Of a stretch of DNA of 7,006 nucleotides, positions 3,987 to 5,026 are shown piece after piece (positions within the stretch are counted from its first letter, which is position 1; the number at the start of each line of letters is the position of its first letter). The notes beneath the pieces are model-generated. The model ran no database searches. It worked only from the letters and a program-made list of their open reading frames with translations, and was not told the origin of the DNA. The translations under genes and the position numbers were made by a program. This DNA is from a virus (taxonomy: Duplodnaviria; Heunggongvirae; Uroviricota; Caudoviricetes): positions 1 to 7,006 of IMG/VR virus record IMGVR_UViG_2703719365_000001. The stretch is one strand, 5' to 3'.

Positions 3987-4865
3987 ATGAGCACTCATCA
4001 TGTTGTGAGTTTTTCAGGCGGTCGGACATCGGCGTACCTCGTCCACCTTATGGAGCAACGCAGAAAAGCTGGTGAAAACGTTCATTACATACTCATGGAT
4101 ACGGGATGTGAACACCCGCTGACGTACCGGTTTATTCGGGAGGTTGTGAAGTTCTGGGATATTCCGCTAACCGTGTTGCAGGTCGATATAAATCCAGAGC
4201 TTGGGCAGCCAAATGGTTATACGGAATGGGAACCAAAGGATATTCAGACGCGAATGCCGGTGCTTAAACCGTTTATGGACATGGTAAAAAAATATGGCAC
4301 GCCATACATCGGCGGCGCGTTCTGCACTGACAGATTAAAGCTCACCCCCTTCACAAAATACTGCGATGACCATTTCGGACAAGGGAACTACATCACGTGG
4401 CTGGGTATTCGTGCAGACGAACCCCGTAGGCTGAAACCGAAACCGGGCGTCCGGTATCTTGCCGAACTGTCAGATTTTGATAAGTCGGATGTTATCCGGT
4501 GGTGGCGAAAACAACCTTTTGATTTGCAAATCCCGGAGCACCTCGGGAACTGTGTTTTCTGCATCAAAAAGTCAACGCAAAAGCTGGGGCTTGCATGTAA
4601 AGACGAACCTGGTCTGATGCGGGTTTTTAATGAACTGGTTACAGGCAAACACGTCAGGGATGGTCATCGCAGAACAGGTAAAGACGTTATGTACCGTGGT
4701 CACCTGACGCTTGACGGGATTGCCAGGATGTATGCCGACAGCGACTACAGCAATTTGTATCAAGCGATGGTGCTGGCCAAGCGGTTTGATACTGGTTCGT
4801 GTTCCGAATCATGTGAAATCTGGGGTGACCAATTGGAGTTGAAATTCGAAGAGGTAGTGGCATGA
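3987..4865 (+). CDS. Phosphoadenosine-phosphosulfate (PAPS) reductase-like PP-loop ATP pyrophosphatase superfamily protein, 292 aa
   Basis: N-terminal PP-loop motif S8-F-S-G-G-R-T-S15 ('VVSFSGGRTSAYLV'). Paired cysteine motifs C189-x2-C192 ('GNCVFC') and C272-x3-C276 ('CSESC'). It is the first ATG after an in-frame TAA at 3972. Confidence 0.93.
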   Translation: MSTHHVVSFSGGRTSAYLVHLMEQRRKAGENVHYILMDTGCEHPLTYRFIREVVKFWDIPLTVLQVDINPELGQPNGYTEWEPKDIQTRMPVLKPFMDMVKKYGTPYIGGAFCTDRLKLTPFTKYCDDHFGQGNYITWLGIRADEPRRLKPKPGVRYLAELSDFDKSDVIRWWRKQPFDLQIPEHLGNCVFCIKKSTQKLGLACKDEPGLMRVFNELVTGKHVRDGHRRTGKDVMYRGHLTLDGIARMYADSDYSNLYQAMVLAKRFDTGSCSESCEIWGDQLELKFEEVVA

Positions 4866-5026
4866 CAATCGTAAAAACCCATACCGGCATTGTGATCACC
4901 AAAGACGGCCCGCAGGTAAAAAAACTTCACCAGACAGAGCGGATGTGGGTCGTCGGCAAAAACGAGTTTTACCACAAAGAAACCGGACGCCGCCACTTTG
5001 CAGAAAATACGCGCGCAGACTGCTGA
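4862..5026 (+). CDS. Small ORF, 54 aa (MTIVKTHTGIVITKDGPQVKKLHQTERMWVVGKNEFYHKETGRRHFAENTRADC), translationally coupled to the PAPS-reductase-like gene. Not in the supplied track, presumably because it is below the length cutoff.
   Basis: Its ATG (4862-4864) overlaps the upstream TGA (4863-4865) as ATGA. GAAGAGG at 4848-4854 sits 7 nt upstream. The frame is open for 54 codons to TGA at 5024-5026. Confidence 0.5.
   Translation: MTIVKTHTGIVITKDGPQVKKLHQTERMWVVGKNEFYHKETGRRHFAENTRADC

Follow-up and report, generated by a model that had tools for sequence, protein, structure and literature searches.

The stretch of DNA analysed here (the window) comprises 7,006 nucleotides (nt), positions 1 to 7,006 of the Caudoviricetes record IMGVR_UViG_2703719365_000001. 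It is part of a lambdoid (Stx-type) Escherichia coli prophage, whose early-left (pL-type) operon it represents, and the subject is two neighbouring genes within it: one for a protein of 292 amino acids (aa), and a small open reading frame (ORF) of 54 codons whose ATG overlaps the stop codon of the first. An earlier note, made from the letters of the window, had recorded the 292-aa ORF with a PP-loop (SFSGGRTS) and the cysteine pairs C189/C192 and C272/C276, followed by an ATGA overlap (4862-4865) and a 54-codon ORF with its own Shine-Dalgarno sequence; all of these were present as it had described them, the Shine-Dalgarno sequence reading AAGAGG at 4849-4854 (Table 1). The observation was confirmed, and the interpretation put on it, a plausible, undescribed modification or anti-defence module made up of an enzyme and a coupled micro-protein, was supported in part.

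The 292-aa protein was aligned with lambda NinC without large gaps, at 79.9% identity over aa 5-292 (tblastn). The matching lambda gene lies between ninB and ninF, and is thus NinC/Orf-290 (lambdap64); homologues in the Salmonella phages SE21, Oslo and Chi carry the names NinC or 'ninC-like'. Being 80% identical to lambda NinC, the protein belongs to a known family and cannot be called undescribed. That the gene at 3987-4865 is the orthologue of lambda NinC, and that the gene at 4862-5026 is a separate gene of the family phrog_1226, are each near certain, and we hold the two identities together with very high confidence. The gene family was already known, and the copy described here is unusual only in its position, which is in an early-left operon and not in a nin region. 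It is a large family, with 1550 representatives after clustering at 50% and with homologues in 584 phage records, and at least 1000 public contigs carry the exact 292-aa sequence, under the name 'phosphoadenosine phosphosulfate reductase family protein'. In lambda, NinC is nonessential and is counted among the 'poorly understood' proteins of the phage (PMC10695390; PMC3224144). Our search of the literature on NinC returned only mentions of essentiality and of interaction maps, the other matches being mostly noise.

By motif and fold the protein is a member of the PP-loop ATP pyrophosphatase superfamily, and catalysis is predicted from its sequence. It has the SGGxxS PP-loop after the first beta-strand of a Rossmann-like alpha/beta fold, and the anticipated PF01507-like match was found in Pfam, with a score of 35 bits (cut-off 22.5) and over aa 5-73 only. 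Conservation was assessed in 59 homologues with identities of 51% or more and in 34 diverse homologues down to ~26% identity. C113, C189, C192 and C276 are invariant in the larger set, where C272 is at least 90% conserved, while C113, C189, C272 and C276 are invariant in the diverse set, where C192 is at least 90% conserved. Both cysteine pairs of the earlier note were thus conserved among homologues; its list missed the equally conserved C113. The protein has cysteines at positions 41, 113, 126, 189, 192, 204, 272 and 276, among which C41, C126 and C204 are not family-wide. K118 is invariant in both sets. The 34 diverse homologues also share invariant G187 and N188 and, in the PP-loop, invariant S10, G12 and S15, with G11 and S8 at least 90% conserved. 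The AlphaFold2 (AF2) model of the protein has a predicted local distance difference test score (pLDDT) of 88.7, falling to 64 at residues 261-270, 51 at 271-280 and below 50 at 279-292. A PDB profile search for an alignment of the cysteine motifs with adenosine phosphosulfate (APS) reductase reached aa 3-97 only, and because the alignment ended at aa 97 we only infer, by analogy, that C113 and the CxxC pair may be equivalent to the cluster ligands of that enzyme.

Table 1. Features of the window, with the two genes under study and their elements given first.
Feature	Position	Strand	Basis or remark
NinC-like gene, 292 aa, PP-loop ATP-pyrophosphatase fold, phosphoadenosine phosphosulfate (PAPS)-reductase branch	3987..4865	+	ORF list; lambda NinC/Orf-290 orthologue
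PP-loop SFSGGRTS, aa 8-15	4008..4031	+	sequence and conservation in 34 homologues
C113 codon, motif FCTDRLK	4323..4325	+	invariant; candidate third metal or iron-sulfur (Fe-S) ligand
CxxC, C189/C192, inside GNCxFCxKK	4551..4562	+	homologue alignments
CxxxC dyad, C272/C276, motif GSCSESCE	4800..4814	+	conserved; in the lower-confidence C-terminal tail
54-codon ORF, frameshift-truncated allele of the conserved 67-aa phage gene (phrog_1226)	4862..5026	+	ATG overlaps NinC stop, ATGA 4862-4865
Shine-Dalgarno-like AAGAGG, 7 nt 5' of the small-ORF ATG	4849..4854	+	sequence
1-bp deletion site (C missing between two bases), frame shifted at codon 52	5014..5015	+	alignment with O103:H2 prophage
Rest of the ancestral 67-aa frame, now out of frame	5015..5064	+	encodes conserved R52, L54, I59 and last beta-strand (model aa 53-61)
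phrog_1344, 79-aa gene	5057..5296	+	phrog_1344 E = 3e-53; dN/dS 0.24
RecT	99-779		
YqaJ-type exonuclease	776-1465		
SSB-like phrog_743 protein	1465-2052		
phrog_204 gene	between phrog_743 gene and YfdQ		
YfdQ/DUF2303	2538-3359		
phrog_1363 gene	between YfdQ and NinC-like gene		
Ead/Ea22-like gene, then two more phage ORFs	3' of phrog_1344 gene		

The small ORF is a real gene under purifying selection. The ratio of nonsynonymous to synonymous substitution rates (dN/dS) was 0.12 in its frame as compared with ~1.5 in the two other frames, bearing out the selection that the earlier note had looked for. The ORF that the note called a micro-ORF exists and belongs to a conserved gene, but the 54-aa product is that of a truncated allele, the full gene being 67 codons long. 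The phrog_1226 profile matched it with E = 1.5e-32, covering positions 1-52 of 67, and residues 1-51 of the 54-aa product are identical to the common 67-aa protein, whose gene is represented by 119 protein clusters across the Enterobacteriaceae. Near-identical prophages carry one extra C (CGCGCCGCAG, as against CGCGCGCAG in the window) and encode a product of 67 aa; with this frame intact, the gene would end at window position 5064, overlapping the ATG of the next gene (5057) by 8 nt. The deletion removes R52, L54, I59 and the final beta-strand from the window product. It is rare: all 15 of the 15 best E. coli matches span 1502 bases as against the 1501-base query, the exact 54-aa product was found on 4 contigs, whereas the 67-aa form is on at least 1000, and an exact scan of IMG/VR for the deletion allele returned zero matches. 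For the O103:H2 prophage, which is 99.7% identical, RefSeq annotates the 67-aa gene as coding for a hypothetical protein (WP_000157000.1). Several further frameshifted versions of the 67-aa protein are present in public assemblies (P0354, P0358, P0374, P0378, P0389) and reflect either sequencing errors or real decay.

The AF2 model of the 67-aa protein is all-beta (pLDDT 90.2). A PDB fold search with this model gave a best E of 0.95, with only vague resemblance to small barrels of Tudor, Sm and WYL type, and the protein had no Pfam match. Since there was no significant PDB neighbour, we assign it no function. Identity of the small ORF with lambda NinD was considered and rejected, there being no BLASTP similarity between the two and NinD belonging to PF17466.

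The arrangement of the two genes could be taken to indicate a two-component modification or anti-defence module, composed of an enzyme and an overlapping micro-protein. The ATGA overlap, the separate Shine-Dalgarno sequence and the purifying selection on both genes would fit this, and the lineage of Stx phages in which the two are adjacent is a common one (32 of 80 viral loci; 79 near-identical phage records). The wider distribution of the small gene leaves such a module with hardly any probability. Among 80 IMG/VR viral loci that carry the small gene at 91% identity or above, the 79-aa phrog_1344 gene follows it directly, with an 8-nt overlap, in 79, while a full NinC gene precedes it in only 32. 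In 18 loci there is only an in-frame NinC scar of 21-25 codons (MHQIVSFSGGRASACLVHLFEEVVA) 5' of an intact small gene, in three there are partial 3' remnants, and in the remainder the 5' genes are unrelated, encoding a 122-aa protein, a 120-aa protein or a ParB-like protein. Elsewhere, in mEp460, Klebsiella phage 5 and phage Flotzy, the small gene comes after other genes (SfV gp29-like, ParB-like, DksA-like). Phage records with NinC homologues number 584, as compared with 102 for the small gene, which was not detected in the NinC-bearing phages lambda, SE21, Oslo and Chi or in the Vibrio phages; most NinC-bearing phages are without a detectable small gene. In classical nin regions the overlapping ORF 3' of ninC is ninD, whose product has no similarity to that of the small ORF. 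Finally, in the window itself the small gene is frameshifted while the NinC gene is intact. The synteny and the coupled module proposed in the earlier note were therefore not borne out: the small gene is independent of NinC and travels with the 79-aa gene 3' of it.

The NinC-like gene has been lost repeatedly in these loci through internal deletion, with the 67-aa and 79-aa genes left intact. The remnants are either the 21-25-codon scar, in which the PP-loop N-terminus is joined to the last 6 codons, or the last 35-54 codons only; they were seen in the IMG/VR loci L051 (2928-3004) and 17 others, L007, L029 and L067, and in the phage records LC727849, LC727851, LC727863 and LC727874.

Overlap of stop and start codons is common in this operon. 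Overlaps of 4 nt or 1 nt occur at four gene boundaries in the window (776/779, 1465, 4862/4865 and 6223/6226), no sigma-70-like promoter site was found in 3300-5400, and terminator-like hairpins in the same interval were at chance level only, as would be consistent with a single read-through operon. The ATGA overlap is thus an element of generic operon architecture and no sign of partnership between NinC and the small ORF. For annotation this means that the 'micro-ORF' is a known 67-aa gene, frameshifted in the window, and that, in the early operons of lambdoid phages, translational overlap is no ground for pairing genes by function.

Among profiles of defence-system proteins, the NinC family is closest to SspD and BrxP, which are phosphorothioate (PT) enzymes, as judged by profile similarity. 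The PADLOC SspD profile matched the 292-aa protein with E = 9.3e-15, aa 4-148 aligning with profile positions 1-121 of 277. SspD was matched by all 34 of the diverse NinC-family members (best E = 2.8e-20), BrxP by 18 and DndC by three. NinC relatives are in addition fused to N6-adenine DNA methyltransferases in three architectures, Dam-NinC, NinC-Dam (phage Dam, PF05869) and NinC with a D12-class methyltransferase, and these fusions arose independently. In Salmonella phage Oslo a Dam gene adjoins ninC with a 4-nt overlap.

A link to evasion of Dnd is provided by Vibrio phage 44E38.1. Its p0018 protein has 56% identity over 95% of the 292-aa query, and the PP-loop and all conserved cysteines align. 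Only two genes are specific to the phages infecting a V. crassostreae clade that carries Dnd, and p0018 is one of them (10.1101/2021.05.05.442762). When p0018 and p0019 were moved together into a sensitive phage, 10^11 plaque-forming units (PFU)/ml were obtained on a Dnd-positive, retron-deleted host (10.1101/2021.05.05.442762; Piel et al. 2022). In a 2026 paper the 44E38.1 result is cited as that of a phage PAPS reductase promoting Dnd evasion. The SspD matches, the Dam and D12 fusions and the phenotype of the Vibrio gene pair make a DNA-modification or counter-defence role plausible, in keeping with the suggestion of the earlier note. A DNA-directed, sulfur-handling counter-defence role for NinC is likely, and is not a new idea.

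The database name and the PF01507 match could indicate a true PAPS or APS reductase, encoded by an auxiliary metabolic gene of CysH type that would raise sulfate assimilation by the host in the course of infection, and the best PDB matches in sequence and in fold are indeed CysH and APS reductases. We consider this very improbable. The PF01507 match covers aa 5-73 only, the protein scored far below the cut-offs of NF002537 (22.6 bits as against 154) and TIGR00434 (16.1 bits as against 165), and the catalytic tail motif ECG[LIV]H is absent, the NinC-like tail reading GSCSESCEIWG. The PP-loop of NinC is of the canonical ATP-using form SGGxxS, whereas aligned CysH sequences show SSSFG there. The fusion partners in the family are DNA methyltransferases and include no sulfur-assimilation genes, and the gene is located among recombination and 'ea' genes. 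A thiolase of RNA (tRNA) or another base-modifying PP-loop enzyme of the TtcA/NcsA/TtuA/TilS type, acting on host or phage tRNA or writing a mark on the base rather than on the backbone, would share the PP-loop, and we give it a small but real chance. The proximity of NinC to the SspD and BrxP profiles, and not to TilS (E = 0.009), argues against it, as do the repeated fusions with DNA adenine methyltransferases and the genetic phenotype of the Vibrio homologue, which involves a DNA-targeting defence; no RNA-binding domain was detected in the protein.

The homology to SspD, BrxP and DndC and the anti-Dnd phenotype of the homologue would also be expected if NinC did not modify DNA, and acted instead as a DndC/SspD mimic that binds or diverts host Dnd/Ssp components or the sulfur supply. 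The lack of a gene for a partner nucleoside triphosphatase (NTPase) in the vicinity would fit such an antagonist, given that PT synthesis depends on one. Yet all PP-loop and cysteine residues are strictly conserved down to ~26% identity, which fits a working enzyme rather than a mimic, and blocking of modification alone would presumably leave DndFGH cutting unmodified phage DNA. We regard non-modifying antagonism as distinctly unlikely.

A DNA-directed counter-defence dependent on ATP and sulfur appears to us to be the best-supported mechanism for NinC. NinC, an accessory enzyme that is nonessential and has the canonical PP-loop of ATP-using enzymes, would adenylate a target on nucleic acid and then transfer sulfur provided by the host cysteine desulfurase. 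Its substrate would be phage DNA, and the phage genome would in consequence pass PT-dependent restriction of the Dnd/Ssp type. Genes for the partners dndD and dndE (and dndA/iscS) were found neither in the window nor in a 19.5-kb O103:H2 locus, and sspB/sspC, brxC/brxZ/brxL and a P-loop NTPase were not found among the ORFs of the window. As no P-loop NTPase accompanies the NinC gene in the window, we propose the use of host partners, and NinC would probably cooperate with those of the DndD/E or SspB/C type. We put forward this sulfur-transfer, anti-Dnd-type mechanism tentatively, with rather less than even confidence.

Several points weigh against it. The SspD match is limited to the N-terminal half of the protein (aa 4-148), and the likeness to DndC is weak: the DndC equivalog TIGR03183 scored 17.2 bits as against a cut-off of 290.4, and the PADLOC DndC profile gave an E of ~2e-4. 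We know of no NinC-family protein with an established biochemical activity. Nor are most E. coli hosts of such prophages known to carry Dnd or Ssp, so that NinC may have another target. PT synthesis is reported to require a P-loop NTPase besides the PAPS-reductase-domain protein (PMC12914056), and the window encodes none. The Vibrio transfer involved two genes at once, one of them with a Dam domain, and so established neither sufficiency nor necessity for the PAPS-like domain alone (10.1101/2021.05.05.442762).

The explanation as a whole, comprising two independent genes, of which one is the NinC orthologue and the other a separate small gene, together with the mechanism proposed for NinC, has in our judgement about an even prospect of being correct. 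A broader generalization is more doubtful, and we offer it as a minority possibility: that the NinC family, including Orf-290, lambda's orphan of 40 years, consists of stand-alone phage enzymes for the transfer of sulfur to DNA, which a fused adenine-methyltransferase domain would target in some of the phages, and which would write a phosphorothioate or other thio-mark on the phage genome or would hijack the host Dnd/Ssp machinery to this end. If this were true, NinC proteins would constitute a widespread counter-defence against modification-dependent immunity. NinC is among the last lambda genes without an assigned function, and the link from lambda NinC to Vibrio Dnd evasion, the family-wide SspD-like profile and the methyltransferase fusions together make its function cheap to test.

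The surrounding DNA is widespread in E. coli. Positions 3800-5300 of the window have 99.5-99.9% identity to prophages in Shiga toxin-producing E. coli strains, and a match to this 1.5-kb region is present in ~900 of the 5426 complete E. coli genomes. The operon of O103:H2 strain 12009 is oriented from Rha/Kil/GamL towards the integrase. The gene 5' of the NinC-like gene (phrog_1363, a protein family without assigned function) occupies window positions 3436-3879, which correspond to 8637-9080 of the 19.5-kb O103:H2 locus, and encodes 147 aa in RefSeq; the RefSeq start lies ~69 nt 5' of position 3505, where the list for the window has its first start, and a gap of 107 nt separates the gene from the NinC-like gene. 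Further 3', positions 5678-6226 encode a 182-aa protein (phrog_9263/phrog_631) with a weak match to phrog_5429, 'DNA repair protein'. It had zero matches in Pfam, NCBIfam and PADLOC; a D...E-x-K-like stretch, IEAKCSRAD, suggests a possible PD-(D/E)xK nuclease. Outside the window, the O103:H2 locus encodes an MT-A70-family N6-adenine methyltransferase (15722-16348) in the same early-left operon, ~5.6 kb 3' of the NinC-like gene, a noteworthy neighbour in view of the repeated fusion of NinC relatives to adenine methyltransferases. The same locus carries at 1-2732, beside the prophage regulatory region, genes for an Eco57I-like methylase and a BsuBI/PstI-family restriction endonuclease and a Panacea-domain gene, and these look like prophage-borne defence cargo. 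A different setting was seen in Salmonella phage Chi. There, at 2477-3834 of the locus examined, gp42, the ninC-like gene, shares an overlap with a gene whose annotation is nucleoside 2-deoxyribosyltransferase (DUF7768 being its best Pfam match and PF05014 a weak one), and a thymidylate-synthase-complementing gene is close by. These surroundings are those of nucleotide metabolism and differ from the lambdoid setting.

Compared with lambda NinC, the window protein is of similar length (292 as against 290 aa) and has identical conserved motifs. In lambda the gene is part of the nin region, with P/ren/ninB on one side and Q on the other, whereas the window gene comes after RecT, the exonuclease and YfdQ and before the Ea22-like gene; 3' of it stands phrog_1226, where lambda has NinD. 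The assimilatory PAPS/APS reductases (CysH; PDB 6vpu, 1sur, 2goy) differ from NinC in that ~120 C-terminal residues of the latter are family-specific.

The 'anti-Dnd' pair of Vibrio phage 44E38.1 differs in that p0018 has a C-terminal Dam domain and that p0019 (DUF6475, 196 aa) lies directly 5' of it. In the window, tblastn with Oslo Dam and with p0019 gave matches no better than E ~1, and the window proteins had zero Dam Pfam matches. We rejected p0019 as a counterpart of the small ORF on account of its length, its 5' position and its DUF6475 domain. JSS1_004, another anti-Dnd protein, was likewise rejected as a relative, being an unrelated T7 gp0.7-like kinase/shutoff protein.

NinC differs from SspD, BrxP and DndC as a stand-alone phage gene without desulfurase, nickase/DndE or NTPase partner genes. 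It resembles them in its PP-loop ATP-pyrophosphatase core and in cysteines that would be compatible with an Fe-S site and a cysteine dyad. DndC has been described as a PP-loop enzyme with a 4Fe-4S cluster held by three cysteines and a sulfur-accepting cysteine dyad (PMC10853773). NinC, with C113, C189 and C192 and the pair C272 and C276, has an equal number of cysteines, an analogy by count, drawn from sequence alone, in which the first three might correspond to the cluster and the pair to the dyad.

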